Below, one piece after another: positions 20,410 through 49,932 of a stretch of DNA of 64,000 nt (positions are counted from its first letter, which is position 1; each line of letters starts with the position of its first letter). The notes under the pieces were generated by a model. The model was given only the letters and a program-made list of their open reading frames with translations, ran no database searches and was not told where the DNA came from. The translations under genes were made by a program, and so were the position numbers. This DNA is from a virus (Duplodnaviria > Caudoviricetes), in IMG/VR virus record IMGVR_UViG_3300013121_000022, positions 1 to 64,000 of that record, one strand, 5' to 3'.

Positions 20410-20410
20410 T

Positions 20411-21550
20411 ATGTTGCGTGACATTGTGGTTGATGTTTTGGAAAAAGGCGGCAAGGGTTCGGGTTTTTTTGCTCCCCGTCATCAAGGCCGCATTGGTCAG
20501 ATTGGCGGATCAACATCAGAAAATGTTGCCGCTCAGTCGTCGGGACGAAGAATTTATACTGAACTTCTGACAATCGACAATGACAAACTCAACGATCCAA
20601 AGGAAGTTGCCAGAGCTAATCGCTGGACTAAAAAACATATCAACATACTATTGAGGTCGGGCAAACAGAATGTCACAGTCAAAAAGATTAATGGAAACAA
20701 TAAAACCATTTTTACGATTGAATATGACATGCCAGTTGTTCAGGTTGATCCTAAACCGGATGAGTCGGTGTCCGAGAACGTTGATTTATACACTCCGGTT
20801 TCAGTCAAGAAAAAAATAACCGTACCGTCAACTGCCAAAACTGAGGCAGGCAAAAAAATATATACCAACGCACGAGAAATTATCGATGCTATTGATTCGA
20901 TTCATAAAATGCCAAGCAATGCCCCTGTCGTAAACGTACATGTTTATGGTTTGAGATCGGGATTTGGTGAATACCGATATGGGACAGATGTTTCTACAAT
21001 TCGTGTATCTTCTAAGAGAACAGAGAATAATGAAGCAGAAGAAACTATCACACACGAAATGGGACACTGGCTAGATCATGCGTTAGGAAAAAGATTTACC
21101 AAATACAAGCAATCTCTTTTTACCGATGTTGCCTATAAGCCGGACTCTAATGCCGATCCAGCGATAAAAGACGCAATAGATGATTGGGTAAATGCCGTTA
21201 TGAATTCTCAGGCGGTAAACGAACTCGCTCAAACCAAACACAAAAAAACCTTAACAAAATTGATTCGCACTAAAAACGCCGATGGATCGTTGACGGTGGA
21301 AAGTAAGAGCATCAATGTTGACAGGAAAATCGTTAGATATTTCTTAAGCACCGCTGAATTGTTTGCCCGATCCTATTCTCAGTATATTGGAACTAAAACC
21401 GGACGAAAGGGAATTATGGATGCAATCAATAAAGTGAAACAAGGAAGCGATCAAACTTTTTATCCTCAACACTGGACTGACGATGATTTCAAGCCCATAT
21501 ACCATGCTATGGAAAACATTCTCAAAACAGCAGGACTACTAAATGAATAA
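20411..21550 (+). CDS. tagged cargo: zincin (HEMGH) / LPD1-like domain
   Basis: Start refined to ATG 20411; alternative tag KGGKGSGFFAPRHQGRIGQIGGS at 20444; HEMGHWLD; YFLSTAELFARSYSQY. Confidence 0.75.
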   Translation: MLRDIVVDVLEKGGKGSGFFAPRHQGRIGQIGGSTSENVAAQSSGRRIYTELLTIDNDKLNDPKEVARANRWTKKHINILLRSGKQNVTVKKINGNNKTIFTIEYDMPVVQVDPKPDESVSENVDLYTPVSVKKKITVPSTAKTEAGKKIYTNAREIIDAIDSIHKMPSNAPVVNVHVYGLRSGFGEYRYGTDVSTIRVSSKRTENNEAEETITHEMGHWLDHALGKRFTKYKQSLFTDVAYKPDSNADPAIKDAIDDWVNAVMNSQAVNELAQTKHKKTLTKLIRTKNADGSLTVESKSINVDRKIVRYFLSTAELFARSYSQYIGTKTGRKGIMDAINKVKQGSDQTFYPQHWTDDDFKPIYHAMENILKTAGLLNE

Positions 21551-28235: not shown

Positions 28236-29016
28236 TAACCTATCTCAAAAACAGCGCCAAAAACTCGAACAGATAGACTCGGTACAAAAGCATTCCTTTC
28301 CGTTCGATCATCCAGACGACCTACATAGAATTTTAGAACAGTCAGTCGAATACGCCGAAACACCCATGCCCGAATCCACTGTGGAATTATGGGATCAACT
28401 TGACGACTGGATTGATGGACTTGTCGATCAAGAGTCGGACGAAGATCGCAGCTTTGAAGAAGTTGACGAACTGGATAAAGGCGATAGTCCCGGACATCCA
28501 TTTAGAGGAAATCAATACGTTGACGGTGAAGGTGGCTCGTCGCTATCTGAGGAAGAAAAAGCCAGCATTAAACAACACATAGCCGATCACGGATTCCCAA
28601 GCAAAAAAACCTTGATTCATGATTTGGACGCATATCGCGAACGGGCAATTCGTCGCAAGCAAGAATTAGATGACATCACGGAAAAGTTGAACAACGAAAC
28701 AAACAAGAAAAAACTTATGTTGTTGAGAGGCGCACACACCACTGCTACCAAAGATTATGAAAGTGCTATTAATTTAGTCGAACGAACAAAATATAAACTC
28801 GAACTGGCAGAAAACGATCCAGATACGCTAAATGCAAGTCAGCAATACAAACAGGCATTGGATGACTTTTCGAGAGCGGCGGAGAAATGGCAGGCCGCAA
28901 AGACTGATTTCCGATCACGCAAAATTGGTGACGCTGAATATTTCAAAGCCAGAGACGAATTTAAGTTGGCCGAACAAGCAATGAATCAAGCGGAGAAAAA
29001 AGAACAGAATCGATGA
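28228..29016 (+). CDS. tagged helical cargo protein
   Basis: Alternative tag KGDSPGHPFRGNQY at 28477; coiled-coil C-terminus. Confidence 0.7.
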   Translation: MLNNLSQKQRQKLEQIDSVQKHSFPFDHPDDLHRILEQSVEYAETPMPESTVELWDQLDDWIDGLVDQESDEDRSFEEVDELDKGDSPGHPFRGNQYVDGEGGSSLSEEEKASIKQHIADHGFPSKKTLIHDLDAYRERAIRRKQELDDITEKLNNETNKKKLMLLRGAHTTATKDYESAINLVERTKYKLELAENDPDTLNASQQYKQALDDFSRAAEKWQAAKTDFRSRKIGDAEYFKARDEFKLAEQAMNQAEKKEQNR

Positions 29017-32000
29017 AAAAAACCATTTGGCAGGATCATCGTTATTCAATCCAAGAAGAAGATGTGAATGACGACAAAACTGTATATTATTTGTCTGGCA
29101 AAGGCATCGAAACAACTCCTGTATTGTTTGTGCATGGCACAGTATGGGGATCGTATTCAGGTCGCCTGTCCGACATGGCCGATCAACTATCCCGCAAGGG
29201 GTATATGTCGTTAAGTCCAAATACAAAATCACTTGCCAAACAAATTATCACACTTGCACCAAAGGGCATTGGTCTGTCAAAGAAATTCAACCCCGATCAA
29301 CCAAGAGATGAAAACGGGCAGTGGACAGATACCAACATTTCTAAGCATAAACCCTCAACCAAGATTACTCAATCGCCAGAATTCAAAAGATGGTTCGGAA
29401 ATTCTCGCGCAATAAATCATGATGGAACACCCCAAATTCTATATCATTCCACTACTAAAGATTTTGATGAATTTGCTTCCGGCCAAGAAACAGTCAATGG
29501 CGGATCGTTTGGAAACTGGACAGTAAAGCGATCTGGTATATTTTTTGCGGAATCACCTGTCGATTCCCAAGCATATACAAGTGATGGCAAAAGACAGAAA
29601 CAAAACGCAAGAACTATTCCAGTATTCTTGAAAGAGGTCAACCCACTTGATCTGGTATCCGATGGACTAACATTTGATATTGTTAATTCATTAGTTTCAA
29701 CTGGCTATGTCACCGAGAAGTTTCTATACAGCAAAGACTTCAATTGGGAATTATTTGATGATGAAGATGGAATCGCATTTACCAACGCAGTAAAGGCGGC
29801 TGGATATGACTCAGTTAGATTTTGGGACAACAACCCCGATACAGGCAAATCATTTGTTACTCATGTCGTGTTTGATCCAACTCAGATTAAGTCTGCTATC
29901 GGAAATTCTGGCGAATTCAATCCTGACAACCCAAAGATAACCAAACATCTTCCGGGAGAACACGATCAACTTACTCACGGACGCCAAACATCTGGCGAAG
30001 TACAATCAAACAGCGATCAACCAAAACAAACAACGCCAATCAAACAACCACGCACCAGAGAGGATGTTATTCGATCCAAAGAGTTCAAGAAATGGTTCGG
30101 AGATTCAAAGGTTGTCGATGAAAATGGCGATCCGTTGGTGGTGTATCACGGAACAACTCACACATTCGATCAATTCGATCTCAACAAAGCGCCCATTGAA
30201 AATGCCGTTGGACGCGGATTTTATTTTTCGTCTGACTCATATGACGCCGGAAACAATTATGCAACTCCGCTAGGGCCAGACATCACTGAACGAATCGCAA
30301 ATTACGCCGATCAACTTAAAGATTCCGAAGACGAAGACGGAAATCCTATCGACCATGATCGGGCAATGGAACTTGCTAGAGAGAAATTTGTTGGCGATCA
30401 TGAAGGGGCGGTTTTACCCGTCTACTTAAAAATCGAAAATCCAGTCTATTTGAACAAAAATTCTCGCGCCTACGACAAAAATACTCGATTTGAAATTATT
30501 GAGAATTTCGATGAAGATGGAAACGAAACAGACGATCCCGAAGGCAACGGAATCCAGTTACTGGAGTCTATTGATAATGCGTGCGCCAACTATAACTTAG
30601 ATTCTGATATTGTCAAAGAGAAGTTATATGAAGGTCTTATAGATGGATCGTTGACTGCTTATGACGTTATGAAAACGATTGGAGATACATTCTCTGATGT
30701 TTATGACGAAAACACAGGAGAATATGCTGGAGGTCAGTTGATTAGCGACATATTTCAAGGCATGGGATATGATGGCATTATATTTGAAAATGCAAATCAA
30801 TTCTTTCCAAAAATGGGCATTGAATACGAAGCTGATCACTATGTTGTATTTGATCCGACGCAAGTCAAATCGGCTATTGGCAATTCTGGAGAATTCAGTC
30901 CTGATAATCCAAAGATCAACAAAAGTCTCAGGAAGTCGGTTGAGAATGTTTTCAAGCACTTACCGGGTCAACACGATCAATCTACTCACGGCAGGAAACA
31001 TTCACTAGATTCTTCTGGTACAAGTTCAAACTCGTCAAATGTTAGAATCCCAAACGATGACGAGGCCAAGAAAATTTCAGACCTTATGTGGCATATTCGT
31101 CAAAGCGGATTTGACGGAGTCTATGTCAATGATCGAAAAGTGACACCAGAGCAGGCCATTGAAAGTCTGTCAGAGGTTGTCGATCAACTTGATACGATCA
31201 AAAAAGTGTTTCCAACTCTTGATTTGTTCAATCTATCAATCAGATTCAATCTCCAAGATGCTTATGACGGAACTAATGCATTTTACTCGCCGGAAGATCG
31301 GGTAATAGAAATTCACGAAGGCAATGGCGAAGGGTTTGCACACGAATTGTTTCACGCTATCGATCATGGATTTAGTAAGTCTATAGCTCGTAATCACCCA
31401 AGCCGTTTAGCCTCAGAAATTACAGACATATATGCTGTCGAGTTATTGAATGACACTCCGCAGGCAATGGCGATTCACAAAGCCTTTAAGGATTTCTTTG
31501 GCGCAGTAAAAAATACAAAAACGTTTACGGACGACTGGAGTGATATTGCCAATCTCATAGATGAGGATAAAAGAAGAAACGCTCATCCAGATCGTGTAGC
31601 AAACTTTATTAGATACTACAAATCACCAGTAGAGTTTTCGGCGCGATTTTTTGAACAATACATGCAGAAAGAACACGGACTCAAGCAGGTTGGGTATTCA
31701 CGATCTACTCATTACATGCGCGACGCAGACTATCAAGCAGTCAAACCGTATTTTGAGAGTGTACTAGAGTCTTTTGGTCTAATGACCAAGACATCTAAGC
31801 ATTATCCCGGTCTTCACAACCAACAAGATCACGCTCCAAACGAAAAGGTCGCCAGAGAACACCAAGATTCGCACAAGTTTCTCGATTCCTTGAAACAGGC
31901 CAATTTACAGCCGGACGATGTACGCACAATCAGTAAAAAGAAAACCAAGATGAGGCTTGAACTCATTTATCATGACGAAACTAGGGCAAAGCAGGCATTC

Positions 32001-33290
32001 GATAAATCTAAAGCAATGGGATTTGATACATCCACCAGCATTTATCGCTTGCCACTAAACGCCGACATGACAAAATTCAAGCATGGATTTTTGGTGACAG
32101 CGCCCGATTACTATACTCCAAGAGGGCCAAGCTCCAACAACGAAGTTCGCCAAGTGTTCGGCAAGCATCTTCCGGGACAACATGACCAGAGAGATCATGC
32201 ACCTGCCCATCTATCCGACTCTGAGCATCAACGCTATGCCCGAAGTCGAGTTAAACGAGAATCGCTGGTGGCTAATGGACTCAAGGGTTATCGAGCACTA
32301 ATTCAGTTGGTCGGCGGAGATCGCGCCAGTGAATTAGTCGCGTCTTATCGTCGCTATCGTCCAAGCAGATCGGCGCAGATCGTTTCTCGCTGGTTATTAG
32401 ACCTGCATATCCCCCACGAGATGGAAGTAAAGCTTGCCCCTGAAATCTATGTTGACATCATGTTTGGGAACAAGATTATTGAACTACGTGGAAAGAATCA
32501 TGCCAATCGATCAAAAGAATATGCCGCACAGCGCAAAGAAATTCAAAAGCGCAAAGCGGATATTGCTCAAAATCGCGGCATGTCTATATTGTATTTAACT
32601 GATACAGAAATTCAAACTGGCAAAGCACTCGATAAATTGAAAGTGTTTGTGAACGAGCCTGCTCAAAAGCATCTGGCCGGAATGCATAATCAACAGGATC
32701 ATGGACGCAAGAAACGCGAGTACGCCTTGACTGAAATCACTAAACAAGATGATAGTACGTGGTCAAAATCAGCAAATCAACTTTCAAAGCCCAATCATCC
32801 GCGTTTTGATGACATCTTGAAATCAGCAATCTATATATATTCAGCCCTTGAAGATCAACAAAAATCAAAAGGCACATACAAGGTTGTTGGTCTGCGAGAC
32901 AATTCCAATGTACTACAAGCGTTTTTTGGAGTAGATACATTAGACGCAGGCAAACTAAATAAGCTGAAAGACTATGGCATGTCTAATTCAGACGCAGATC
33001 AAATCAAAGATGCGTTGTACCTTGATTCCTTGTCGGTAGCTCCCTGGCATTTTGGAGATGACGGTGTTTCTGGTTGGGGAATTGAGATTATGAGATCGGC
33101 CATTAATTATGCCAAAAACAATCACAAGAATGGTATATTTCTAGTATCTGCCGATTCGGGATCGGACTCTTTTTACAATCTAATTGACATGAAGAAAATA
33201 TCAACACTCAACAATAAGCAGGGCTATTTTTGGAATACGCAAGACATGGAGGCGTTTTTGAATGAGTATCAACTTAGACAAAGCAAGTAA
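29013..33290 (+). CDS. tagged polyvalent polyprotein: 2x ART-PolyVal, zincin/LPD1, unknown module, PD-(D/E)xK nuclease-like, GNAT-like
   Basis: F..WFG.S.....G.P...YH.T twice, each ending VVFDPTQ.KSAIGNSGEF; HELFH...YY..PVEF.AR.FEQY; VDI......IELRG..H; LYLDSLSVAPW; six tags at domain borders. Confidence 0.85.
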   Translation: MKKTIWQDHRYSIQEEDVNDDKTVYYLSGKGIETTPVLFVHGTVWGSYSGRLSDMADQLSRKGYMSLSPNTKSLAKQIITLAPKGIGLSKKFNPDQPRDENGQWTDTNISKHKPSTKITQSPEFKRWFGNSRAINHDGTPQILYHSTTKDFDEFASGQETVNGGSFGNWTVKRSGIFFAESPVDSQAYTSDGKRQKQNARTIPVFLKEVNPLDLVSDGLTFDIVNSLVSTGYVTEKFLYSKDFNWELFDDEDGIAFTNAVKAAGYDSVRFWDNNPDTGKSFVTHVVFDPTQIKSAIGNSGEFNPDNPKITKHLPGEHDQLTHGRQTSGEVQSNSDQPKQTTPIKQPRTREDVIRSKEFKKWFGDSKVVDENGDPLVVYHGTTHTFDQFDLNKAPIENAVGRGFYFSSDSYDAGNNYATPLGPDITERIANYADQLKDSEDEDGNPIDHDRAMELAREKFVGDHEGAVLPVYLKIENPVYLNKNSRAYDKNTRFEIIENFDEDGNETDDPEGNGIQLLESIDNACANYNLDSDIVKEKLYEGLIDGSLTAYDVMKTIGDTFSDVYDENTGEYAGGQLISDIFQGMGYDGIIFENANQFFPKMGIEYEADHYVVFDPTQVKSAIGNSGEFSPDNPKINKSLRKSVENVFKHLPGQHDQSTHGRKHSLDSSGTSSNSSNVRIPNDDEAKKISDLMWHIRQSGFDGVYVNDRKVTPEQAIESLSEVVDQLDTIKKVFPTLDLFNLSIRFNLQDAYDGTNAFYSPEDRVIEIHEGNGEGFAHELFHAIDHGFSKSIARNHPSRLASEITDIYAVELLNDTPQAMAIHKAFKDFFGAVKNTKTFTDDWSDIANLIDEDKRRNAHPDRVANFIRYYKSPVEFSARFFEQYMQKEHGLKQVGYSRSTHYMRDADYQAVKPYFESVLESFGLMTKTSKHYPGLHNQQDHAPNEKVAREHQDSHKFLDSLKQANLQPDDVRTISKKKTKMRLELIYHDETRAKQAFDKSKAMGFDTSTSIYRLPLNADMTKFKHGFLVTAPDYYTPRGPSSNNEVRQVFGKHLPGQHDQRDHAPAHLSDSEHQRYARSRVKRESLVANGLKGYRALIQLVGGDRASELVASYRRYRPSRSAQIVSRWLLDLHIPHEMEVKLAPEIYVDIMFGNKIIELRGKNHANRSKEYAAQRKEIQKRKADIAQNRGMSILYLTDTEIQTGKALDKLKVFVNEPAQKHLAGMHNQQDHGRKKREYALTEITKQDDSTWSKSANQLSKPNHPRFDDILKSAIYIYSALEDQQKSKGTYKVVGLRDNSNVLQAFFGVDTLDAGKLNKLKDYGMSNSDADQIKDALYLDSLSVAPWHFGDDGVSGWGIEIMRSAINYAKNNHKNGIFLVSADSGSDSFYNLIDMKKISTLNNKQGYFWNTQDMEAFLNEYQLRQSK

Positions 33291-35829
33291 AATAAATCCA
33301 TTCGCCGGACACAAGTCAAGTAAGTTACGATCATCGATAACTCGCGCAATCAAACACTTGCCTGGCGAACACGATCAACTTACTCACGGTCATGGAGATG
33401 GTGTTAATAACTCTCAATCGCCTCAGCCTAACACAAGTTCAGTCGCACCAAAGCCCAAATCTTTGGGATCGCAATTGCAGGGACTTTCCATTCAGGAACG
33501 CAAGGCAATGTGGCAGGCCATGTCACAAGAACAACAAGACGAACTTGTTAACGCAAAAGAATACATCAAAAACACAATCGCAACTCGCCTGAAATTCGCT
33601 GGTAGGCGTCCCACCGAAGGCGAACCAGTCAAAGCGGTCAATCAACGATTGAAGCAGATTGGGGATTTTATTACTCCTGATGCTGGTAAGCAAATTCAAA
33701 AACACATGAAAGCACTTGACGGGTTTTTGAAGGCAAGTAAAGTGGACGACGATTCAATTCGAGAAATTTTACTAGAATCAGTCGATGCCCTTGCGGTTCA
33801 GGAAAACGAGAGCTTGTCTCGATCATTGGGAGATCACGGTGTTCGTCACTTGCTAGGCGATGTCGATGCCGCACTCAGTATTCTTGAAACAGTTCCGGGG
33901 TTTGATTCTCCACAAACCAAAGCGGTAGTAACATTGGCAGGTGTCTTTCACGATTCGGGATACCTAACCGAACCAAGTCACTTCTTTTTGGATTCCGAAC
34001 ATCCACACCATTCTACTCAACACTATGAGGCCAATATTAGTCCAATGATCAAGGACGCACTCGGAGATGCCGCTGATGCCTTGTTAAAGAAAACCATTGA
34101 AACACACTATAGCAATGAACTGGATTGGGAAAACGATCCGGTGGCAAGTGCATTTCGTGTGGCTGATAACGTGGCCTTATTTCATAAGGAAAAACTACCC
34201 GGCCTTATTCATCACGTACCAGAAAACAAGCAGGTAATTTTTGACTTTGCCGATAAAAAAATTGACGTACCCGAAGCAATCAAGCGGATGAAGGCAAACA
34301 TTAAGTCCAGTTCCTTATCCGACTCAGTCAAGGCAGTGCTATCTCATGCCGCCGACGAATTCTCGCCCGTCCTTGTCAAAAATACATTGGGTATGTTGGC
34401 CGGAGAAATAAAAGGCTTTGACTGGCAAGACAATTCTCTGGTCGTAAAGGTAAAGCGCGACCAAGAAAATCTCAAGATGCATCAAGTATTTGATCTTGGG
34501 CAAAAGAACTTCACCAAGTTTGCGGAAGCATTTGGAGTTGATCCAAAGAAATTTGAGACTGAAAACAAATTTGAATTCATCGATCCACAAACAAGCAAGC
34601 TGGATATGCTGGTATTGGTAGAGGGAAAACTTGAAAAAGAATTGTTTGCCAGAATTATGAAAAGTATGAATTCATACTTACGCAAGCATCATGCCGGAGA
34701 GCACGATCAACTTACTCATGGAAACTGGTCGGATGCCACATGGAAGTCGCTCGAATCCGAATCGCAGGACAAAATTATCAATACCATGAAACACGCAAAG
34801 CCTGTAAAAGTTTTTGGTAGCAATCTTGCCAATGTATATACGTTAGACTTGAATGGCGACAGGCGTGTTGTTGAATGGGACGGTGAAGATGACTTGTATC
34901 CAGCAGTGTCGCCAATTGACGACTTTGTGTATTCCAGTTCCGGCGAACGCATGATAAATAAGATCGTCTCTAAACTTTCTGAACAATTTTCATCTGACTT
35001 CAATCAACACCCACAAACACTGTATCATGCAACTGACAGTAAAAACGTTGCATCAATAACGTCGCAAGGGCTAAAACCGTCTGACAAGACCAGAGGCATT
35101 ACAAATCGTCATGTGCATAACGCGATTTTTACAACACTCAATGAGAATTCAGCACTGTCAGGATCATATGGAGATTCGGTATTCAAGATTGACACACAGG
35201 CTATGAAACGTGACGGAATCGATCTGTCAGTCGAAAAAGAACCAGAAGCATTTCGTCAAGAAGCAACTCAAATTTTAGCCAATGCCATTGGGATTGAAGA
35301 TTTTGAGAGCAATGAATCTTTCGATAACGCTGACGACCCTGAAACGGTAATTGCCTACAATTCAATTCCGCCAAAATATCTAACGCTGGTAACTCAAAAG
35401 TCACAAGGCGATAACGCCATACTATATCATGGCACAGGCGCAGATGTAGTTGAACGCATCAAAAAGGAAGGGTTACTTCCTCCATCTCTAACTGGCAACG
35501 CAGTGGCAATGGCACATTCAATTGAAAGTGAGGAAGACGCAGATCGATACGCGTCGGTGTACTTGACTGGCAATAAAAAAAAGACATTGGCCTACGCTTT
35601 ACAATCAGCAAAGTTTCATAATGCATCTCAGGCCGCAATCATAGAGGTTGAATTGCCAGAATCGGAATCGACTATAATCGATGAATACGATTCGGAGTCG
35701 GTGAGACTTCCAGAGGTAAAGCCAGAATGGATCAAAAATATTTCGTTGTTATCTGTCGGTGATTTGGAGAGAATGACAAAAAGCGCAAGAGATAGAGAGA
35801 CTCTATACGCTGTTGTTGTAATAAAATAA
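33262..35829 (+). CDS. tagged polyprotein: HD phosphohydrolase plus two ART-fold (Tpt1/DUF952-like) domains
   Basis: Tags at 33352 and 34684; DHGVRH...FHDSGY...H...VAD; LYHAT...I...GL.P and LYHGT...IKKEGL.P...VYLT...PEWI. Confidence 0.75.
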   Translation: MSINLDKASKINPFAGHKSSKLRSSITRAIKHLPGEHDQLTHGHGDGVNNSQSPQPNTSSVAPKPKSLGSQLQGLSIQERKAMWQAMSQEQQDELVNAKEYIKNTIATRLKFAGRRPTEGEPVKAVNQRLKQIGDFITPDAGKQIQKHMKALDGFLKASKVDDDSIREILLESVDALAVQENESLSRSLGDHGVRHLLGDVDAALSILETVPGFDSPQTKAVVTLAGVFHDSGYLTEPSHFFLDSEHPHHSTQHYEANISPMIKDALGDAADALLKKTIETHYSNELDWENDPVASAFRVADNVALFHKEKLPGLIHHVPENKQVIFDFADKKIDVPEAIKRMKANIKSSSLSDSVKAVLSHAADEFSPVLVKNTLGMLAGEIKGFDWQDNSLVVKVKRDQENLKMHQVFDLGQKNFTKFAEAFGVDPKKFETENKFEFIDPQTSKLDMLVLVEGKLEKELFARIMKSMNSYLRKHHAGEHDQLTHGNWSDATWKSLESESQDKIINTMKHAKPVKVFGSNLANVYTLDLNGDRRVVEWDGEDDLYPAVSPIDDFVYSSSGERMINKIVSKLSEQFSSDFNQHPQTLYHATDSKNVASITSQGLKPSDKTRGITNRHVHNAIFTTLNENSALSGSYGDSVFKIDTQAMKRDGIDLSVEKEPEAFRQEATQILANAIGIEDFESNESFDNADDPETVIAYNSIPPKYLTLVTQKSQGDNAILYHGTGADVVERIKKEGLLPPSLTGNAVAMAHSIESEEDADRYASVYLTGNKKKTLAYALQSAKFHNASQAAIIEVELPESESTIIDEYDSESVRLPEVKPEWIKNISLLSVGDLERMTKSARDRETLYAVVVIK

Positions 35830-37313
35830 TGGCCTCCAGCCTAGAAGAAAAAGCACTATACGTCAAAGCACTTTACAAACAAGGTCTAAAGTTTCCGGCA
35901 TGGAGTGTGGAACGCACTAAGTTTCATACTGAATCGTTTTGGTTATTTTCAAATTGGTTTAGACCACAATCCGAACCATATCAACCATTTCATAAAGAGT
36001 GGATGGAAATTGCTTGTGGTCAACAATTCTTTGGAGTTCTCGCACCCCGCGATCATTCAAAGTCAACAACCTTTGGATCGAACTACCCGATCTGGAGATT
36101 GTTTATGCAACCCGAATCGACTATTATGCTGGTCGCTTCTGCCGCCTCAGTTGCTGAATTACAAATGCGACGTATCAAAGAGTGCATCGAAACTGACGAC
36201 TTGCTAAAAAAGTATTTTGGAAATTTATATCCCACCAATCCAATCAAATGGACAAACACAGAAATTATCGTGGAGCGACCCGCTGGTATCGCCCATCCCT
36301 CAGTCGTAGCTCTAGGTGTTGGGGCAGCTATCCTGTCTCGTCGTGCTAAATTCGTAATAGCCGATGATATTGTGCGAGATGACGAAGTTGGAGATGAACA
36401 GCGCGAACGACTGGCGGCATGGGTTAATGGAGTTTTGCTTGGAGTTCTTGAACCTGATGATCAAGTGGGCTTTATTGGCACAAAGAAACACGAGTGGGAT
36501 TTTTACGGGCAATTAGAACAAAATCGAAAATACTTTTATCGGCGCTATGACGCGATTCAAAAAGAAAATCCAGATGGATCATGGGAAACATTGTGGCCGA
36601 GTAAATGGCCGGACAAAGCCCTAAAAGATCGTCTGGAATTACTTGGATCGCATGAATTTAATCGCAACTACCGCAACATCGCAATGGGTGACAACGAATC
36701 ACCTTTTCCGCTCAAGTGGCTTGAAAAATGCAAGCAATGGGACTTAGATTTGCATTGGGAGTATCCTTATCAAGACATCAAAAAGGTGATTTCCATAGAC
36801 TTGTCAATGAACAGTCAAACTAAAGGATCATCGGGATCGTACTTTGTTGCATTGGTCTTGGGATTGCTCCCTGATAACCGCTATATTGTGCTCAACATGA
36901 TTAGAAGCAAGACATTTAACTTTCCGCAACAGGTTGAGGAAGTGTCGCATCTTATTGAAAAATTCCCGCCCGATGCCGTGATTGTTGAAACTAATGCCTA
37001 TCAACGCGCCATGTATGATACTTTGGTGTTAAAATATCCACATATCAACATCGAATCGCACGTTACTGGTCGGAATAAAAATTCACCCGATGAAGGCATT
37101 CCAATTTTACAGCCAATCATTGAATCTGCTCGTCTTCTGTTTCCATATGCAAATCCAACTGCCAGAGCAATTAGCGATGTCATTATCGAGGAATTGAATC
37201 GACTGTTAGTTGCAAGGTACACTGATACAGTTATGGCGCTGTGGTTTGGAGTCAAGTGGTTGGCGCAATACGTGAAAACCACCAAGTACAGAACCAGAGC
37301 TGCTATTCTTTAG
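35829..37313 (+). CDS. terL: terminase large subunit
   Basis: APRDHSKS Walker A, VIADD Walker B, IGT coupling motif, ISIDLS...VETNAYQ...DTVMA nuclease. Confidence 0.93.
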   Translation: MASSLEEKALYVKALYKQGLKFPAWSVERTKFHTESFWLFSNWFRPQSEPYQPFHKEWMEIACGQQFFGVLAPRDHSKSTTFGSNYPIWRLFMQPESTIMLVASAASVAELQMRRIKECIETDDLLKKYFGNLYPTNPIKWTNTEIIVERPAGIAHPSVVALGVGAAILSRRAKFVIADDIVRDDEVGDEQRERLAAWVNGVLLGVLEPDDQVGFIGTKKHEWDFYGQLEQNRKYFYRRYDAIQKENPDGSWETLWPSKWPDKALKDRLELLGSHEFNRNYRNIAMGDNESPFPLKWLEKCKQWDLDLHWEYPYQDIKKVISIDLSMNSQTKGSSGSYFVALVLGLLPDNRYIVLNMIRSKTFNFPQQVEEVSHLIEKFPPDAVIVETNAYQRAMYDTLVLKYPHINIESHVTGRNKNSPDEGIPILQPIIESARLLFPYANPTARAISDVIIEELNRLLVARYTDTVMALWFGVKWLAQYVKTTKYRTRAAIL

Positions 37314-37322: not shown

Positions 37323-39062
37323 ATGAGAAAATCAAAAACACCGACAAAGCCGCTAATCCCTAAAACAGACATCAAAGTTATTCCAGTCGAAAAGGGAATG
37401 AAAGACGATGGAACACCATTTGTTAAAGCCGTTGTGTTGAAGGGTGCAAAAAAATCACGCGTCAAGCGAGACATTTCCAAGTCGGCCTACAAAGACAATA
37501 AAATAGTTGAACCGTATCTTAAGCCAGCAGTGTTAGACGAGTTTTTGGTTGCCTCTCCAACTCATGCAATCTCAGTACACAAAAAAGCCAGACTAGTCGC
37601 CGGACTCGGCATTAAGATCATTACCCGATTTAACGCTGGAGAGGCTAGGGTAAAAATGCGAAAATGGGAAAATGCCGATCCCGAACAACAAAAAAAGCTC
37701 GATAAAAAAGAGTACGATGAAGCTAAAAAGAATTTGGCGGCATTCAAGCTCGAAAAAGAAAGATTACAAAACTGGCTGGACAGCGCAACAGACGAATCGA
37801 TCTTATTGGATATTATTGAAAACTTTTGGGCGGACTATGAGGCATTTGGTAACGGCAACTTAGAAATTCGCCGCGACGATAATGATGAAGTTGCCAAAAT
37901 CGGACACATCCCCTCACTTCGACTGAAAGTAGTTCAGGGCGGAGAGAAGTTCGCTTACTTCGCCACACCCAATCAAATCAATCCAGAATATTTCAAGCGA
38001 TTTGGCGATCCCCGACACCTAAACGCCAAAACTGGTGAATGGCGAGAGTGGAAAGGATCGATTGACGATGACGATTTTGACGCAGGCAAAGATTGGGGAG
38101 ATGACGAAGCGAATGAGGTATTGCGCTATCTGTGCTACAACTCTCGCGACATGAATTACGGCATTCCTGTTTGGTATTCAGCTTTGGCCGATATGATCGG
38201 CGCAATCGAATCGCGTGACTTCATGCTCAAGTTCTTCACCGAAAAAGCTGTGCCCATGTATGCGGTTCTACTGGAAGGCGGATCGTGGTCGGATGAAACC
38301 ATTGCCACTATTCAAAATTTCTTTCGTCGTGAACTTAACGGAAACTATCACGCGACACTCGCCCTAGAAGTTCCAGAGAATGGCAAGATTACGTTTGAGC
38401 AAATCAGCCAAGAGCCGCGCTGGTGGCCTTTCATTCTAAAATATCGTGACACTGTGCGAGATATTATTGTCTCGGTACACGGCCTTACTCCGTCCCTTGT
38501 GGGCGTCATTGAAACGGCGCACTTGGGAGGCGGAGATGGATCGGCGCAAATGGAAATGGTCAAAACCGCCGAAATCAAGCCGCGTCAAGAAAAACTTGAA
38601 TGGCTGATGAATCAAAAATTGATCAAGGATGGCATGGGATTGTCGCATGTCATGATCAAGTTTGATGAGATTGATGTCAAAGACGAATCTGCAACCGTTC
38701 AATCAGTTAATACACTTTACTCAAGTCCGCAAAGACCTGCTATTACGACCAATGAAGCAAGAGAAATGTTACGCCTTGCGCCCGTTGATGCAGAATGGGC
38801 GGACGAGCTATTGTTGCAAGACCCGCAATTCGGGTTGTTGCCTATCAGTCAAATTTCAGAGGCAGTTCGCAATCAAGCAAAGTCGGCGCAGATCGCTGGA
38901 CAGGCACAGGGCATTGAGTCTCAAACACAAAACGTTGATGGCCTGCCAGCATCGAAACCAACAGGACAACCAGAACAAGTCCCTGATTTCAACAGTATCT
39001 TTTCTGGATTACAAAAATCAAAAATCAATTTGAGGAAAGAGGTTCGAGATGCTATTAAATAG
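37323..39062 (+). CDS. portal protein (PBSX/XkdE-like)
   Basis: Follows TerL; DYEAFGNG.LEI.R, YGIP.W, FF...A.P, T.NEAREML.L.P. Confidence 0.9.
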   Translation: MRKSKTPTKPLIPKTDIKVIPVEKGMKDDGTPFVKAVVLKGAKKSRVKRDISKSAYKDNKIVEPYLKPAVLDEFLVASPTHAISVHKKARLVAGLGIKIITRFNAGEARVKMRKWENADPEQQKKLDKKEYDEAKKNLAAFKLEKERLQNWLDSATDESILLDIIENFWADYEAFGNGNLEIRRDDNDEVAKIGHIPSLRLKVVQGGEKFAYFATPNQINPEYFKRFGDPRHLNAKTGEWREWKGSIDDDDFDAGKDWGDDEANEVLRYLCYNSRDMNYGIPVWYSALADMIGAIESRDFMLKFFTEKAVPMYAVLLEGGSWSDETIATIQNFFRRELNGNYHATLALEVPENGKITFEQISQEPRWWPFILKYRDTVRDIIVSVHGLTPSLVGVIETAHLGGGDGSAQMEMVKTAEIKPRQEKLEWLMNQKLIKDGMGLSHVMIKFDEIDVKDESATVQSVNTLYSSPQRPAITTNEAREMLRLAPVDAEWADELLLQDPQFGLLPISQISEAVRNQAKSAQIAGQAQGIESQTQNVDGLPASKPTGQPEQVPDFNSIFSGLQKSKINLRKEVRDAIK

Positions 39063-39393: not shown

Positions 39394-39873
39394 TTACTTG
39401 TTTCCAAACAGATGCTTGCGCCAAAATTGAATGCGCCCAACCCGCATCATGGATGCATACAAATTCCGATCCATAGAAATGATGTCGGTTGTTTTTAAGT
39501 TGTCTGGAACTAGATCGATCTTCCGGCTTGAAAAAATTTCCTTGAGCCGATTGGTCAGCCGTTCGACTTTTTTGGATCGGCGCAGATCGGCGTAATCGTT
39601 GTACGACACGCCATGCTTGCTTAAAATGTACCGAATACTGCCAGATGATACATTGGAAATTCGCACAGCATCAGTCAGGGTTTCGCCACTCTTGATGAGA
39701 TTAATGATACCCCGCTCATTTTCGGACGAGAGCGCCGAGATAATCGGGTTTGTTTTTCGCGTACCAGCAATTTGTCCAATGCGTTGGCGCGACAATCCCA
39801 TTGATCGGGCGATCTCTGCATCAGAACTACCCGCAATACGCATTGATTCGATTTTTTCTTTTACCTTATCCAT
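39394..39873 (-). CDS. HTH DNA-binding protein
   Basis: G.S.AEIARSMGLSRQRIGQI. Confidence 0.75.
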   Translation of the reverse strand: MDKVKEKIESMRIAGSSDAEIARSMGLSRQRIGQIAGTRKTNPIISALSSENERGIINLIKSGETLTDAVRISNVSSGSIRYILSKHGVSYNDYADLRRSKKVERLTNRLKEIFSSRKIDLVPDNLKTTDIISMDRNLYASMMRVGRIQFWRKHLFGNK

Positions 39874-39906
39874 ATTTCACCTTAAATGATAAATCCCATA
39901 ACGGGC

Positions 39907-40341
39907 TTATTTTTTCTTATCAACAACAATGAATATTTTTTTGGCCTCTGGATGAGACTCCAGCGTGATCATCTTGCTGGTCTTTGCCGACAAACGTATC
40001 AGCCGTTGGGCGTCGTCAATTGATTCGCAGACATAGCCAACCATGTTTTGTAATTCCAGCGAGTGCAAGATAGCTGCAATGGAATGATAACAAACTGTCT
40101 TTCCGTTTCCCTGACAATCTTGTAATGTGTTATCGACATCTCGCATCATCAAGTGACATGCACACTGAACAATGCTATTGGCCTTGCGTGTAATGGTCAC
40201 GAAATACTGATTGCCACTTGTACCGGGGATGACAAACGACAGTGGTCTGCCGCTTGGATCATGGGCAACCACTCCCGCAAAGATTGAGGCCGCATACGCC
40301 TTAGAGTGTCTTGTTTTTGCCAGTTCTCTCAATGAATTCAT
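39907..40341 (-). CDS. SWIM-type zinc finger protein
   Basis: Y.V.I...CAC...CYHSIA. Confidence 0.65.
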   Translation of the reverse strand: MNSLRELAKTRHSKAYAASIFAGVVAHDPSGRPLSFVIPGTSGNQYFVTITRKANSIVQCACHLMMRDVDNTLQDCQGNGKTVCYHSIAAILHSLELQNMVGYVCESIDDAQRLIRLSAKTSKMITLESHPEAKKIFIVVDKKK

Positions 40342-40362
40342 ATCAATTCCTTTCTAAAAGCA

Positions 40363-40390
40363 ATTGTACCTATTACCAGTAAGATGTCAA
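40363..40390 (-). promoter_or_regulatory. sigma70-type promoter overlapping an inverted repeat
   Basis: Minus strand TTGACA-16bp-TACAAT upstream of 40341. Confidence 0.65.
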
Positions 40391-40416
40391 GCTCGTTTAA
40401 CATCTTACTGGTAATA
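40371..40416. repeat. perfect 17-bp inverted repeat with 12-nt spacer
   Basis: TATTACCAGTAAGATGT...ACATCTTACTGGTAATA. Confidence 0.9.
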
Positions 40417-40418
40417 TA

Positions 40419-42095
40419 CTATTCCTCATCTGCTACAAAAATCAACTCGTGTTTTGCTCTAGTGTAGGCTACGTACACAATGTTCATTTCTTGAACAACT
40501 TCCCAATCCTTTTGATTCTTGCGAACCAACGGCAGTTGTTGAGGTTTCAAAATCCACACTCGATTTGCCTCAAGACCTTTGGCCTTGTGCACAGTCGAAA
40601 GCACGACAGCTGCAACGTCATCCGAAAACAGTTTATCAATTTCCAAGTAAATGTCTTTCGTGGACTGGCATTCAGCCAAGATTAGCCGGAGGGTTTCAAC
40701 TCGATCATTCAATGCTTCAATTTGTGAAACAGAGGCGTTGCGTTTGTTCAGTCGAGCAAGTTCTTTCACCTGATATGCATCGATTTTGGCAAACATCGTA
40801 TCGAACGTATCAGCAAAAACTTTCTTGGCAAAGCCCTTAAGCCCACCAGCAATGTCACGCCCATAAACCACTGCCTTGATTCCAGCCTTCAATAAAGCAT
40901 AGCAATTTGGAATAAGCGGAGCGTTTGTTCGGCACAAAACCATATCACCCGCTTTGATCTCTGCTTGAAAATCTTCTTGAGTAGCATGGCGAACTACGCC
41001 TTCACCAGCATTGTCATTATACTGAATGTGAGGCACAATGGTCTTTGCCAATTCAACAATCGCTTTGTCGCAACGATAGCAAACCGACAACGGCAAAACT
41101 TGGGCATTCAACAATTCGATGAGTTTAGGCATTGCCTGAGTATCAGCACCCCGAAACCCATAAATAGATTGAAAAGGATCACCTACCGCCACAATGCGGC
41201 CTGCCGGACAAGCGTTCAAAATCATCCACGCCTGAGATTCGTTCAAGTCCTGAGTTTCATCAACGCACAGAAAATCAACCGGATCGATCTGGAGTTTCAA
41301 AATATACGGCAACCAAATCATATCGTCATAATCAATTTCCTTGATGTCCGTTCGACTCTTGGCTAAGATGAGTTTCAGGGCATCTAAATACGCATCGACA
41401 TCGCCATTCAAAGCAATATTGAAATGATCAGCCATGTCAAGAACTTCATTCTTGTTGTTAGGATTGACGCACAGGTTTTTCGCTTTACTGACCAAGTGCA
41501 ACAGAGTTTGCCGACGAATAGCCGACGTTTCATCGTCTTTGTCTGTCACACGAAAAGCCGACAAAGCCTGAGTGTTATCAATCATATCGGCAACCTTGAA
41601 TTCATTTACCTTAACTCTGCCGAACTGCTTGGTGATGACAGACAAACCAAACGAGTGCAACGTACACACCCGAATCCAATTGGGTAAACGTGCTTCCAGT
41701 TCCTGCTTAATTCTTTTATTGAAGGCAACCATTACAACGGAGGGATTGCTGATGTTGTTTTTGTTTGCCCATTTAATAATTGAACCGATCATGCCTTCTA
41801 GGGTTGAAGTTTTTCCAGAACCCGCAACAGCGTCGATTACAATATGACCACGACCATTTTCAACCGCATCAAAAATTGCGGCCTGAAAAACTGAGGGGGT
41901 ATATTTCAAAGCGGGAGCGGTAAGATTTTGAATCGCATTCTGAAAGGCATCACCAACCGATTGAACTTCAACGTTCTGGCAATCAACATGAACCCAATTG
42001 CCCTTGCGATTGGTAATCATCGCACCCTGAGCAATGGGTTGCCCACACTCTTTGCATTTTGCTCCGCCGAACTTGGAAGGGAAGATTTTTGCCAT
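40419..42095 (-). CDS. UvrD/Rep-like SF1 helicase with N-terminal Zn finger
   Basis: AVAGSGKT, VDETQD, VGDPFQSIYGFRGAD, STVHKAKGLE, YVAYTRAK. Confidence 0.93.
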   Translation of the reverse strand: MAKIFPSKFGGAKCKECGQPIAQGAMITNRKGNWVHVDCQNVEVQSVGDAFQNAIQNLTAPALKYTPSVFQAAIFDAVENGRGHIVIDAVAGSGKTSTLEGMIGSIIKWANKNNISNPSVVMVAFNKRIKQELEARLPNWIRVCTLHSFGLSVITKQFGRVKVNEFKVADMIDNTQALSAFRVTDKDDETSAIRRQTLLHLVSKAKNLCVNPNNKNEVLDMADHFNIALNGDVDAYLDALKLILAKSRTDIKEIDYDDMIWLPYILKLQIDPVDFLCVDETQDLNESQAWMILNACPAGRIVAVGDPFQSIYGFRGADTQAMPKLIELLNAQVLPLSVCYRCDKAIVELAKTIVPHIQYNDNAGEGVVRHATQEDFQAEIKAGDMVLCRTNAPLIPNCYALLKAGIKAVVYGRDIAGGLKGFAKKVFADTFDTMFAKIDAYQVKELARLNKRNASVSQIEALNDRVETLRLILAECQSTKDIYLEIDKLFSDDVAAVVLSTVHKAKGLEANRVWILKPQQLPLVRKNQKDWEVVQEMNIVYVAYTRAKHELIFVADEE

Positions 42096-42118
42096 GTTTT
42101 TTCTCTCTTTCGAGAGTC

Positions 42119-42147
42119 ATTTTAGCATGTCGGAAGTGAAAAGTCAA
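42119..42147 (-). promoter_or_regulatory. sigma70-type promoter for the helicase
   Basis: Minus strand TTGACT-17bp-TAAAAT with extended -10 TG. Confidence 0.8.
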
Positions 42148-47035: not shown

Positions 47036-48010
47036 ATGACATCAAAACAAGAATTGATTAAAAACATAACCGCACAAATTGCAAGCCTGCTCGACAAAGG
47101 ACTTGAGACATCAAATCTTAGTCAAGGTGGCATGTTGAATTCGGCACAACTTGTTTTGCCAAAGTCGGTTGATGAATTGCCCGACTCAGCAAAAGAAGAA
47201 TTTATTTCAGTGTACAAATCAACAGACGGTGGGGAAGAAACAAAACTCTCCACTGCATGGAAGGCAGTCAAGCGCAAGTGGAAAAAAGTTGAACCCGAAG
47301 ATTCGGAAGACGAAGAATCTGCCGATCACGAACAGGGTGAAACTCCCGACGAAGAAAAAACCGAAGACGAGAATGGCAAGAAAAAGAAAAAGCCGTTCTG
47401 GATGAAAAAAGATGTCTTAGGGCCAATCGTTGGCGATGTTGATCAGTTGCGTCGTCAGTTGATTACAGATGGCTACCCCGAAGCGGCAGAAGAAGTTCAG
47501 ATGGTTGCTGACTCTGGATGGACAATGCCTCTCGCTTTAGACTCAATCCCTCATGGATACAGGGAAACAATTTCGGAGCGATATTTTCATGCTCGCAAGG
47601 ACTTGACTGAAAACGCCGACGAAGCGTTTGAAGTTCAAGTTGCTTTCAAGGCATTGCTTGATGAGCGCAAGATTACTTATGGGGTTGTGTATCCAGCCAA
47701 TGAGGTTGATTTGCAGAAAGAATGGGCGACGGAAAATGTAATTGAAAACGCCGCGCATAATTTCATGGCAAATTACCGACAGCACGACACCTTCCACAAC
47801 GAACGTGCTGGAGCAGGCGTACCCGTTGAATCGTTTATCGCGCCATGCGATATAACCGAATTTCACGGCAAGCGTCTAACTCCCGATCAAGTTATCAAGA
47901 AAGGTTCGTGGATCATGGCAACGAAGTGGAACGATGATACTTGGAACTTGGTCAAGAGCGGAAAGATTAAAGGTTACAGTATCGGCGGATTCAAACGAGT
48001 TCGGAGATAA
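47036..48010 (+). CDS. prohead protease (XkdF/S78-like) with N-terminal capsid-arm-like peptide and ChaB-like domain
   Basis: ITYGVVYP...D...E......IENAAHNFM...H...VESFI...GSWIM...W..VKSG.IKGYSIGG; LP..A...F..VY......TAW.AVK.KWKK (ChaB). Confidence 0.88.
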   Translation: MTSKQELIKNITAQIASLLDKGLETSNLSQGGMLNSAQLVLPKSVDELPDSAKEEFISVYKSTDGGEETKLSTAWKAVKRKWKKVEPEDSEDEESADHEQGETPDEEKTEDENGKKKKKPFWMKKDVLGPIVGDVDQLRRQLITDGYPEAAEEVQMVADSGWTMPLALDSIPHGYRETISERYFHARKDLTENADEAFEVQVAFKALLDERKITYGVVYPANEVDLQKEWATENVIENAAHNFMANYRQHDTFHNERAGAGVPVESFIAPCDITEFHGKRLTPDQVIKKGSWIMATKWNDDTWNLVKSGKIKGYSIGGFKRVRR

Positions 48011-48012
48011 AT

Positions 48013-48921
48013 ATGACGAACAAATTAACTAAAGACGATCCAGAAGCGAAAGAGCTTACACACTTAGATGTTCAATTTGTAAGTGCAGTTGGTAATCCAG
48101 CTACTGGAAAGGACTTCTTACTTTACAAGTCGAAAGACAAAGAGGCACACAACATGAGTGATAAACTTACAGCCGATCAAGGCGTCTTTAAGGAATTTGG
48201 ACGCAAGCTTGCTCAGGCATTTGGCGTTGAAACCGTTGACGAAAGTTTGGCGGAAGCAACTCAGCATCTTGCTGAAATTGCAGCTAAGGCCAGCGGACGC
48301 GCACCAGCTGATGATGCAGGCAATGGTCGTAATCCAAACTATCCCAACCCACCCTATGCGAAATCTCAGGGTATTCCAAATTCAAATGGCGCAACCGCGT
48401 CAGTTGGTAGTTCCGCTCCGGGAACAACTATGAAGCAACAGGCTGAAATTGTACAGGGCAACCCAGCTTTCAATTCCAGCATGAGCGATGTAGTTTCGGG
48501 ACAACCAGTTACAAAAGACGCAATTCAGGAATTTTTGAATCGTGTCGAGAAATCAGCAATCAACCCAAGCGCACTGGAAACAGCTCGTGAAGCTTTGGAA
48601 GCGGCATTCAATCCTGCGCCGGAGGAAACACACATGACATCCGAAGAAGTTAAAGAACTTGTCCTCAAAGCACTCGATCCAATCATCGAGCAAGTTGAGG
48701 AACATGATGAAACAATTACAACCCTTAAGAGCTCGACTGATTGGGAAGCGAAATACAACGAGCTGTTGTATCGCGTCGATGCACTTGAAGCTACCTTCAA
48801 GAATGCAGATGGCACACGCAAAGTTGCAAAAAGTCGTGTTCCGCCTGTCACCGAACCCGTAGCGAAGTCCAGCGGTGTTTGGGCAGGTTCGCCGTTTGAC
48901 ATCTCGGAAGATTTGCTGTAA
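48013..48921 (+). CDS. capsid scaffolding protein carrying a protease-like N-terminal strand
   Basis: Between protease and capsid; ELTHLDVQFVSAVGNPA..K.FLLYKS; coiled coil; many K-S/K-A sites. Confidence 0.7.
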   Translation: MTNKLTKDDPEAKELTHLDVQFVSAVGNPATGKDFLLYKSKDKEAHNMSDKLTADQGVFKEFGRKLAQAFGVETVDESLAEATQHLAEIAAKASGRAPADDAGNGRNPNYPNPPYAKSQGIPNSNGATASVGSSAPGTTMKQQAEIVQGNPAFNSSMSDVVSGQPVTKDAIQEFLNRVEKSAINPSALETAREALEAAFNPAPEETHMTSEEVKELVLKALDPIIEQVEEHDETITTLKSSTDWEAKYNELLYRVDALEATFKNADGTRKVAKSRVPPVTEPVAKSSGVWAGSPFDISEDLL

Positions 48922-48954: not shown

Positions 48955-49932
48955 ATGGCTATGACACCAGAAGAAATTCAGAAACTTGCAGAAGAAATGA
49001 CCCTTCGCAAGTCTTTGCAAACAAGCAACTTGGTTAATGGTGGTTTATTGAATCCGGCGCAAGCTGATGCATTTATCACCTATATGTTCGAGTTGACTGT
49101 GTTGACCAAGCTCCGCTTGATCCGCATGACAACTCCAAAGCAGGACATCGACAAGATCGGTGTTGGTACACGTTTGCTCCGCAAGGCAAGCGAAATGACC
49201 ACTGTTTCCGACTCCACAACGTTTACGTTGGGTAAGGTTCAGTTGGTTACTCAGAAATTGGTATTGCCCTGGGATATTTCCCGCGATACCTACAAATCAA
49301 ACATCGAACGCTCAGGCGTTGCTGATACGGTTCAGCGATTGATGGCTATTCAGGCCGGAAACGATGTTGAAGATTTAGCTATCAACGGTGATACCGCGTC
49401 CGGCGATTCATTGCTATCGGCTAACGATGGTTGGTTGAAGTTGGCAAAGGCATCCGCCGATACCGTTCAGATCATGGCATCTGGTTCTGGTATTTCAAAG
49501 GCGTTGTTCAGTCGAATGATCAAGGGCTTGCCCAACAAGTTCAAGACTCGTCGTTCAGAATTGCGCTTCTATGCCGCACCGAACATCGTTCAGGATTACG
49601 TCGATCAATTGTCAGATCGCGAGACACAATTGGGCGATAGCTTGATCCAAGAAGGCGCTCGTGCAATGGTCTTTGGTATTCCGTTGATCGAAGTTCCATT
49701 GATCCCAACCGATACCGCTGGTACATACGTTGGAGCAACCGGAAACCACTCCGATGTTATCTTGACCTTCCCTGAAAACTTCGTAACTGGAGTTTTGGAA
49801 GACATCGTAGTGTTCCACTGGTTCAATGCTCGTAAAGACGCGCATGAATTTACCATGTACGTTGAAACAGATTACCAGTGGGAAAACTTGCAGGCAGTTG
49901 TTCTACTGCGAGATACCAAAGTATTAAGCTAA
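48955..49932 (+). CDS. major capsid protein (HK97 fold, XkdG-like)
   Basis: GGLLNPAQAD.F, IDKIGVG.R.LR, NIE, D.E.LAINGD, DGWLK, Y..QL..RET.LGD; strong RBS; followed by terminator. Confidence 0.93.
   Translation: MAMTPEEIQKLAEEMTLRKSLQTSNLVNGGLLNPAQADAFITYMFELTVLTKLRLIRMTTPKQDIDKIGVGTRLLRKASEMTTVSDSTTFTLGKVQLVTQKLVLPWDISRDTYKSNIERSGVADTVQRLMAIQAGNDVEDLAINGDTASGDSLLSANDGWLKLAKASADTVQIMASGSGISKALFSRMIKGLPNKFKTRRSELRFYAAPNIVQDYVDQLSDRETQLGDSLIQEGARAMVFGIPLIEVPLIPTDTAGTYVGATGNHSDVILTFPENFVTGVLEDIVVFHWFNARKDAHEFTMYVETDYQWENLQAVVLLRDTKVLS

Follow-up and report, generated by a model that had tools for sequence, protein, structure and literature searches.

Phage T4 packs IPI–III and Alt, enzymes that include an ADP-ribosyltransferase, into its head and injects them, and these proteins carry a short N-terminal peptide. 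This capsid-targeting sequence is both an address and a cut site, and is removed by the gp21 prohead protease at L/I-x-E. In the giant phages phiKZ, 201phi2-1 and SPN3US, a single prohead protease processes many proteins inside the head at S/A/G-x-E, some of them at several sites. Herpesvirus assemblin and HK97-type protease–scaffold precursors bear release and maturation sites, and encapsulin cargo is directed into an HK97-fold shell by short conserved peptides, usually C-terminal and uncut, that are shared by diverse enzymes. Phage-carried proteins are known for only a handful of model phages and are otherwise guesswork for uncultured phages. Here we analyze a 64-kb window, the first part of an uncultured-phage genome of 172.5 kb that bears direct terminal repeats (IMG/VR record IMGVR_UViG_3300013121_000022), and describe a His-rich, 13-residue peptide (the tag) that occurs five times in P0001, a window-encoded protein of 1,425 amino acids (aa).

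In P0001, the tag has the consensus K-H-[LY]-[PA]-G-x-H-[DN]-Q-x-x-H-[GA]. Unlike the T4 sequence, which it does not resemble, it lacks the L/I-x-E pattern and is repeated inside long chains. A single head protease was identified in the window, and its type is Peptidase_S78_2 (XkdF); none of the T4 gp21 type (S77) was recognized there. The giant-phage sites are three residues long and are found in capsid and scaffold proteins too, whereas the tag is 13 residues long and is absent from the capsid and scaffold-like proteins here. There is a likeness to assemblin, in that a protease of the same superfamily lies upstream of the tag in three protease–tag–module proteins (in G029, L060 and P0252), which may release themselves at that site; the assemblin site sequences, however, are unrelated to the tag. 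P0001 itself has the look of an assemblin-type polyprotein, with a junction motif repeated in its linkers and a protease encoded nearby (open reading frame (ORF) 47036). The tag is likewise unrelated in sequence to encapsulin peptides, and always lies ahead of a module.

P0001 belongs with the polyvalent proteins of phages and conjugative elements, which are predicted to be packaged and then cut by MPTase or assemblin-like peptidases, according to the sections considered here of Iyer, Burroughs, Anand, de Souza and Aravind 2017 (PMC5512222). Chains of that class combine many effector domains, such as ART-PolyVal, zincin/LPD, GNAT and kinases; P0001 likewise combines two ART-PolyVal domains, a zincin-like module and three more modules, and its gene, like theirs, lies beside those for terminase (35829) and portal (37323). 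Among ART-PolyVal, LPD and MPTase, the domains that mark the class, ART-PolyVal (PF18760) scores 138 bits against a cut-off of 31.2, while LPD1 matches only weakly. Delivery of P0001 is thus far a prediction from sequence. What sets P0001 apart is a defined peptide at every junction; the same sections of PMC5512222 give no junction motif or site. MuF polymorphic toxins of temperate phages, which join a head-internal carrier domain to variable toxin modules (Jamet et al. 2017, PMC5576092), offer another comparison. A term search of the text obtained for that paper found nothing on a motif, linker or cleavage. Among 64 tagged proteins of other phages, 12 carry MuF domains, but Pfam gave no MuF match in P0001 or P0004. 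A literature search for the motif strings found no description of the His-rich tag.

Position, conservation and spread of the tag

The first-pass annotation had described P0001 as a polyprotein punctuated by a tag at each domain boundary. Its reading frame is indeed open throughout, and five His-rich tags begin at the Lys codons that had been named (Table 1). The sixth proposed boundary, at 29283, is also real, yet of another kind: the Lys there directly precedes FNPDQPRDENGQW, a copy of a second motif (motif B) rather than of the His-rich tag. Several lines of evidence place the tags between domains. The two ART-PolyVal copies both end in GNSGEF(N/S)PDNPKI, and a tag follows directly after the first copy and 12 residues after the second. 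In an AlphaFold2 model of residues 280–960, built from an alignment of 30 rows, the tags at 311, 648 and 929 lie in coil with a predicted local distance difference test (pLDDT) score below 50, between structured parts. Windows of 25 aa with ≤12% hydrophobic residues form eight stretches in P0001, six of which start at the six boundary motifs. Pfam, the internal repeat, structure prediction, hydrophobicity and comparison of tagged proteins (below) agree that the tags of P0001 sit at domain boundaries. The next ORF (33262–35829) is likewise tagged, as had been claimed, at residue 31 (33352–33390) and residue 475 (34684–34722).

Across the 172.5-kb genome, the strict pattern H..G.H[DN]Q..H matched 18 times, versus 0 in each of 20 shuffled genomes, so the repeat is not due to chance. 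All of these tags and their variants lie on the + strand, between 9.4 and 52 kb, with the strict matches confined to 9.4–51.3 kb. Nucleotide identity among the copies averages 67%, and synonymous codons vary freely, which argues for selection on the peptide. A DNA-level repeat or recombination signal was ruled out on the same grounds.

The tag is widespread among uncultured phages. Back-translation of the strict pattern matched IMG/VR contigs in 51 stretches, the source genomes ranging from 4 to 327 kb, and the Lys ahead of the first His was invariant in all 118 copies scored from IMG/VR stretches. We then searched a profile of 33 columns, built from 115 copies, against 1.84 billion protein representatives. 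This gave 1,398 protein clusters at E ≤ 1e-3, 314 at E ≤ 1e-10 (mostly multi-tag) and 26 at E ≤ 1e-30; the top-ranked match carries 10 tags in 3,023 aa, and P0001 ranked ninth. The top-scoring proteins that were looked up all proved to be metagenomic sequences. Six positions were invariant in the 115 aligned copies and in 378 further copies from unrelated phages, while flanks and codons vary freely. Among the best 149 proteins of the profile search, the median tag-to-tag spacing was 252 aa (5–95% range, 135–606). The first tag often lies within 15–45 residues of the N-terminus, and in every case at least about 150 aa follow the last tag, which is never near the C-terminus. Position –2 is hydrophobic in this set, and the downstream flank is rich in Gly, Ser and Ala. 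In single-module proteins, the tag lies 12–36 aa from the N-terminus.

An observation on tandem copies concerns L055, from the 327-kb phage G032. It encodes five tandem paralogues of about 340 aa each, with the tag KHM[PV]GRHDQ..HGNRF at residues 21–36. Jumbo phages have paralogous families of inner-head proteins, which this arrangement brings to mind.

The annotation had offered recent fusion of tagged cassettes as one explanation for a tag per module, and comparison of tagged proteins bears out the fusion of such cassettes. We collected BLAST high-scoring segment pairs (HSPs) of ≥80 aa among tagged proteins and scored an HSP as crossing a tag if ≥40 residues were aligned on each side. Only 278 of 2,983 HSPs crossed a tag, versus 1,105 when the same HSPs were placed at random, and HSP starts and ends accumulate at tags. 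The HD-pattern module of the next ORF occurs in more than 10 other polyproteins, at varied positions, each time with a tag 21–48 aa upstream and often with a second one 8–45 aa downstream. The zincin module of P0001 recurs in the same manner in other tagged polyproteins. Thus, homology blocks end at tags, modules move together with the tag upstream of them, and the tags themselves lie in hydrophilic, unstructured linkers. Modules of multi-tag proteins include several ART families, GNAT, topoisomerase IB, DUF3626, ATLF, SprT, InPase, PBECR4, MuF and ddrB-ParB, a content equal to that of polyvalent proteins. Fusion of cassettes and cleavage, the other explanation on offer, are not mutually exclusive.

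Outside these phages, the tag was rarely seen. The strict tag had no match in 185,579 prokaryote genomes (one per species), and is thus not seen in that set's conjugative elements and prophages; with a relaxed pattern, genuine copies turned up on just a few contigs of metagenome-assembled genomes. Searches (tblastn) with tag peptides of 20–25 aa against 50,697 cultured-phage records gave nothing usable, but queries this short can scarcely reach significance, so the result does not establish that cultured phages lack the tag. Cultured phages gave no match to the two ORFs by megablast or to the HD-pattern module by tblastn, and no tag was found in the head region of Streptomyces phage Coruscant, which has the closest capsid relative. 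The window's capsid protein is present in just two of 34 tagged records. When 10 complete or near-complete tagged genomes were compared all against all by BLAST, only one long protein family recurred besides the tagged proteins (in 9 of 10).

Candidate roles of the tag

We propose that the tag is a processing site at which capsid-loaded cargo is recognized and cut, and we put the probability of this at about 0.5, inferring from sequence and gene order that cargo enters the capsid, that it is cut, and which enzyme cuts it. P0001 would be a polyvalent cargo: effector enzymes joined in one chain, packed into the capsid and delivered together with the DNA. Its modules are each headed by a portable leader, made up of an often present short amphipathic helix, the peptide K-H-L-P-G-x-H-D-Q-x-x-H-G, and a flexible hydrophilic or Gly-rich linker. 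The head-assembly machinery would recognize this leader within the prohead, and a prohead serine protease of the XkdF/S78 type (ORF 47036) would cut at or beside it. Polyproteins and carrier fusions, whether linked to portal, MuF or protease, would in this way be resolved into separate enzymes of about 120–340 aa. In single-module proteins, the N-terminal tag would act as the T4 capsid-targeting sequence does, as address and cut site. Such processing would supply the cut sites that have been predicted but never defined for polyvalent proteins.

Gene order and carrier fusions speak for this proposal. Nine other complete or near-complete phages each have one to four tagged ORFs, which lie side by side, and head genes adjoin them wherever these could be located. 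The XkdF protease gene lies directly downstream of the tagged genes in three genomes (G007, G024 and G033), and in three proteins a tag lies 19–38 aa past an XkdF protease domain (G029, L060 and P0252). Portal proteins are fused to tagged cargo as well. One fusion has 1,208 aa (G019); another, of 1,689 aa, runs portal–tag–module–tag–module–tag–module (G018); and in a third (G020), a degenerate tag links the portal to a module that shares 47% identity with ORF 16880, a tagged ORF that stands alone in this window. A pure address would be redundant in portal–tag–cargo and protease–tag–cargo fusions, whereas a release site makes sense there. An S78 or S78_2 prohead protease is encoded in seven of the eight complete tagged genomes (complete meaning a CheckV estimate of 90% or more). 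PF14550 was rejected as a sole tracker of the tag, being found in only 13 of 34 tagged records; PF04586 accounts for four of the five complete genomes that lack PF14550.

Two structure predictions were neutral. Complex prediction with the 33-aa tag alignment and the XkdF protease domain alignment scored 0.01, versus a mark of 0.32, which speaks neither for nor against binding. AlphaFold2 folded the protease of the L060 protease–linker–tag chain with moderate confidence, while the remainder, including the tag, had pLDDT < 50 and was not docked; this too is evidence in neither direction.

Several observations weigh against the proposal. A prohead protease usually acts on scaffold and capsid proteins, yet the scaffold-like and capsid proteins here bear no tag; the tag therefore does not serve this protease as a general site. 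In G018, one of the complete tagged phages, no S78-type protease could be detected, and none of the tagged phages has been cultured. The 120 ART-PolyVal relatives that score best against P0001 are all untagged. This makes the tagged chains a distinct sub-class, but it also means that such proteins can work without a tag. In addition, 13 near-invariant residues, among them three His, one Asp/Asn and one Gln, exceed the needs of known prohead-protease sites. The tag is moreover kept across two protease Pfam families and across capsid proteins with no detectable relationship, which hints at another partner or a metal ion.

The invariance in particular would suit a peptide that docks and is never cut. 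The tag might be a retention or loading peptide whose target is scaffold, portal, DNA or the inside of the capsid, perhaps bound by way of a shared metal ion; multiple copies per chain would then reflect cassette history and avidity. An invariant run of His, Asp/Asn and Gln fits a binding or metal site better than a protease site, the N-terminal placement in single-module proteins is address-like, and absence from the scaffold-like and capsid proteins is as expected. Docking alone leaves unexplained, however, why modules fused to portal, MuF or protease retain a tag when no address is needed, and why the tag always precedes a module and is never near a C-terminus. A portal subunit bearing more than 1,000 aa of uncut cargo would also be sterically odd. 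We therefore consider docking without cleavage rather unlikely. Cleavage by a different enzyme seems to us a good deal short of likely, and indeed improbable. The candidates would be a polyvalent zincin-type metallopeptidase (aa 661–928 of P0001, or its paralogue at 20396–21550) or a host protease, acting before packaging or after ejection. P0001 does contain an HExxH module, and some tagged proteins carry the zincin-like families M90 and MPTase-PolyVal alongside ATLF and SprT; autoproteolysis of polyvalent proteins by MPTase is proposed in the consulted sections of Iyer et al. 2017 (PMC5512222). But zincin families occur in only a minority of tagged proteins, S78-type proteases occur in nearly all of the complete genomes and in some cases stand immediately upstream of a tag in the same chain, and the best-scoring ART-PolyVal relatives are, as noted, untagged.

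The tag could also have nothing to do with capsid assembly, and act after delivery as a small metal-binding or regulatory element (in activation, localization or host-factor binding). No phage-encoded partner is common to all genomes at the BLAST level, which would fit such a role, as would the His/Asp/Gln-rich invariant positions and their persistence in phages with unrelated capsid proteins. That tagged genes adjoin head genes, where these could be located in complete or near-complete tagged phages, is hard to square with a host-side role, and so is the joining of portal and prohead protease themselves to tags. The prokaryote set covers conjugative elements, another vehicle of polyvalent proteins, and the strict tag does not appear in it either. 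We regard a purely host-side function as highly improbable. Finally, tags travel with modules, as a functionless linker copied along with duplicated cassettes would do; but six positions are invariant in 115 plus 378 copies while codons and flanks vary freely, and this conservation pattern comes close to refuting a neutral relic.

Beyond the processing of P0001, the peptide, possibly together with motif B, may be a portable 'load-and-release' signal common to many unrelated uncultured phages, possibly with metal-dependent recognition. On this view, whatever protein bears the signal at its head would enter the prohead and be released there by cutting. We offer this generalization tentatively, as a possibility that the odds do not yet favor. 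If true, tailed-phage capsids would gain their first cargo code defined by sequence beyond the T4 and phiKZ lineages, and cargo proteins could be read straight from metagenomes. A conserved cargo header would make carried proteins a sequence-readable trait. In this genome, the tag flags about 20 proteins, including ADP-ribosyltransferases, a RelA/SpoT-like protein, a CCA-adding/poly(A)-polymerase-like protein and a kinase-like module.

Genome context and module identities

The features of P0001 and the nearby head genes are collected in Table 1.

Table 1. Layout of P0001 and of neighboring cargo and head genes (window positions)
Feature	Position	Strand	Remarks
P0001, polyvalent cargo protein, 1,425 aa	29013..33290	+	start overlaps stop of upstream ORF
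N-terminal segment, aa 1–90	29013..29282	+	without family match
Motif B boundary FNPDQPRDENGQW, residues 92–104	29286..29324	+	full match to [YF]NP[DN]QPRDxxG[RKQ][WF], then Gly-rich run
ART-PolyVal module 1, aa 123–309	29379..29939	+	C-terminal end is GNSGEFNPDNPKI
Tag 1 KHLPGEHDQLTHG, aa 311–323	29943..29981	+	coil, pLDDT < 50
ART-PolyVal module 2, aa 357–635	30081..30917	+	AlphaFold2 core aa 344–634, pLDDT > 90
Tag 2 KHLPGQHDQSTHG, aa 648–660	30954..30992	+	coil, pLDDT < 50; preceded by short helix, aa 639–648
Zincin-like module	30993..31796	+	HELFH at 31341 (aa 777)
Tag 3 KHYPGLHNQQDHA, aa 929–941	31797..31835	+	coil, pLDDT < 50
Module without assigned family, aa 942–1050	31836..32162	+	
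Tag 4 KHLPGQHDQRDHA, aa 1051–1063	32163..32201	+	heads a stretch poor in hydrophobic residues
Module with first-pass label PD-(D/E)xK-like, unconfirmed	32202..32666	+	
Tag 5 KHLAGMHNQQDHG, aa 1219–1231	32667..32705	+	heads a stretch poor in hydrophobic residues
C-terminal module with first-pass label GNAT-like, unconfirmed	32706..33287	+	one paralogue, 86459–86962
Next cargo protein, 855 aa	33262..35829	+	overlaps P0001; HD-pattern module, then two Tpt1/KptA/PARP-like units
Terminase large subunit	35829..37313	+	
Portal protein	37323..39062	+	
Prohead protease, XkdF type, candidate cutter	47036..48010	+	Peptidase_S78_2 at aa 209–319, E 8.9e-28
Scaffold-like protein, untagged	48013..48921	+	collinear with C-terminal half of protease–scaffold family phrog_3017
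Major capsid protein, untagged	48955..49932	+	about 40% identical to that of Streptomyces phage Coruscant

A run of consecutive + strand ORFs from 9.3 to 35.8 kb, mostly tagged, leads directly into the terminase and portal genes, and three further tagged ORFs lie beyond the major capsid protein gene. Proteins of the tagged block upstream of P0001 (9336–28235) include a RelA/SpoT-like domain (12674), an exoenzyme-type ART (14698), a P-loop kinase-like module (15378), a CCA-adding/poly(A)-polymerase head with an HD domain (22292) and a TiaS-type zinc ribbon (27423). If packaged, the block would amount to a large set of enzymes directed at nucleotides and RNA. Within this otherwise tagged block lies an untagged paralogue (20396–21550, 384 aa) of the P0001 zincin module.

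Variant tags have Lys codons at 27687, 52019, 13097, 15432, 42222 and 9411, and take the forms KHPGHPDQ[SK]VHG, KH...PQSVH and KHLRGTQFDHDQSSHG. They keep the His/Asp/Gln pattern, with spacing off by one to several residues. KHPGHPDQ[SK]VHG occurs in ORFs 27423 and 51857, and also directly after the protease domain of G029.

Between portal and protease, a minus-strand insert (39394–46546) carries genes for a helicase and an RtcB-type RNA ligase and an ATP-dependent DNA-ligase-like gene. The XkdF protease ORF ends 7 aa past GYSIGG. ORF 48013 opens with LDVQFVSAVGNPATG, which resembles the strand that follows GYSIGG in homologous proteases (SDVHVDT) as well as the N-termini of scaffold-like ORFs in G007, G024 and G033 (SGVDHPAHLHEGW). 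ORFs 47036 and 48013 may thus represent a protease/scaffold split with a shared strand. A programmed frameshift joining them is unlikely: no slippery site was found, and 48013 has its own GGAG ribosome-binding site.

Of the module labels given in the first-pass annotation, that of two ART-PolyVal domains is confirmed. Pfam matched the family over two stretches (E 3.9e-40), the two copies form an internal repeat, and the predicted fold is PARP-like (Z about 8). Against tankyrase/PARP catalytic domains, the predicted structure of the second copy (ART2) gave Z scores of 7.7–8.6, indicating a predicted ADP-ribosyltransferase fold. The nearest solved structure to ART2 is residues 1418–1601 of 9k3a chain B (Z 10.3, 171 aligned), a capsid-internal ejection protein from the cyanophage A4 pre-ejectosome. 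A term search of the available text of the A4 structure paper (PMC12002296) did not find 'ADP-ribosyl'.

The other labels fared unevenly. The zincin label is plausible, given the HELFH at aa 777 together with weak matches to LPD1 (20.8 bits versus a cut-off of 27) and DUF6782. For aa 1051–1218, called PD-(D/E)xK-like, there was no match in Pfam, PHROGs or PDB sequences. The GNAT label for aa 1219–1425 found no Pfam or PHROG match at E ≤ 1; the best hint among PDB sequences was a GNAT, at a non-significant E of 0.68. In the next ORF, a Tpt1/KptA/PARP-like ART fold is supported, whereas the HD label rests on an H..HD..H..H..D pattern invariant in 13 homologues. PDB sequence searches with the zincin module and with the HD-pattern profile gave nothing significant, and no stand-alone shorter homologues of P0001 aa 640–1425 were found.

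A second motif family

Motif B, [YF]-N-P-[DN]-Q-P-R-D-x-x-G-[RKQ]-[WF] followed by a Gly-rich run, marks the first boundary of P0001. A literature search found no paper on it. The motif occurs in more than 119 IMG/VR stretches, including loci L147–L226, a spread at least as wide as that of the His-rich tag. Among the matches listed, single ORFs contain several copies, at a median spacing of 210 aa, and in 108 ORFs the motif was never found together with the His-rich tag. P0001 and P0234 are exceptions that combine the two. The shared C-terminal tail of the ART-PolyVal domains, GNSGEF-N/S-PDNPKI (29901–29939 and 30879–30917), resembles the first half of motif B (FNPDQP), and judging by this resemblance it might be a degenerate relative of that motif.

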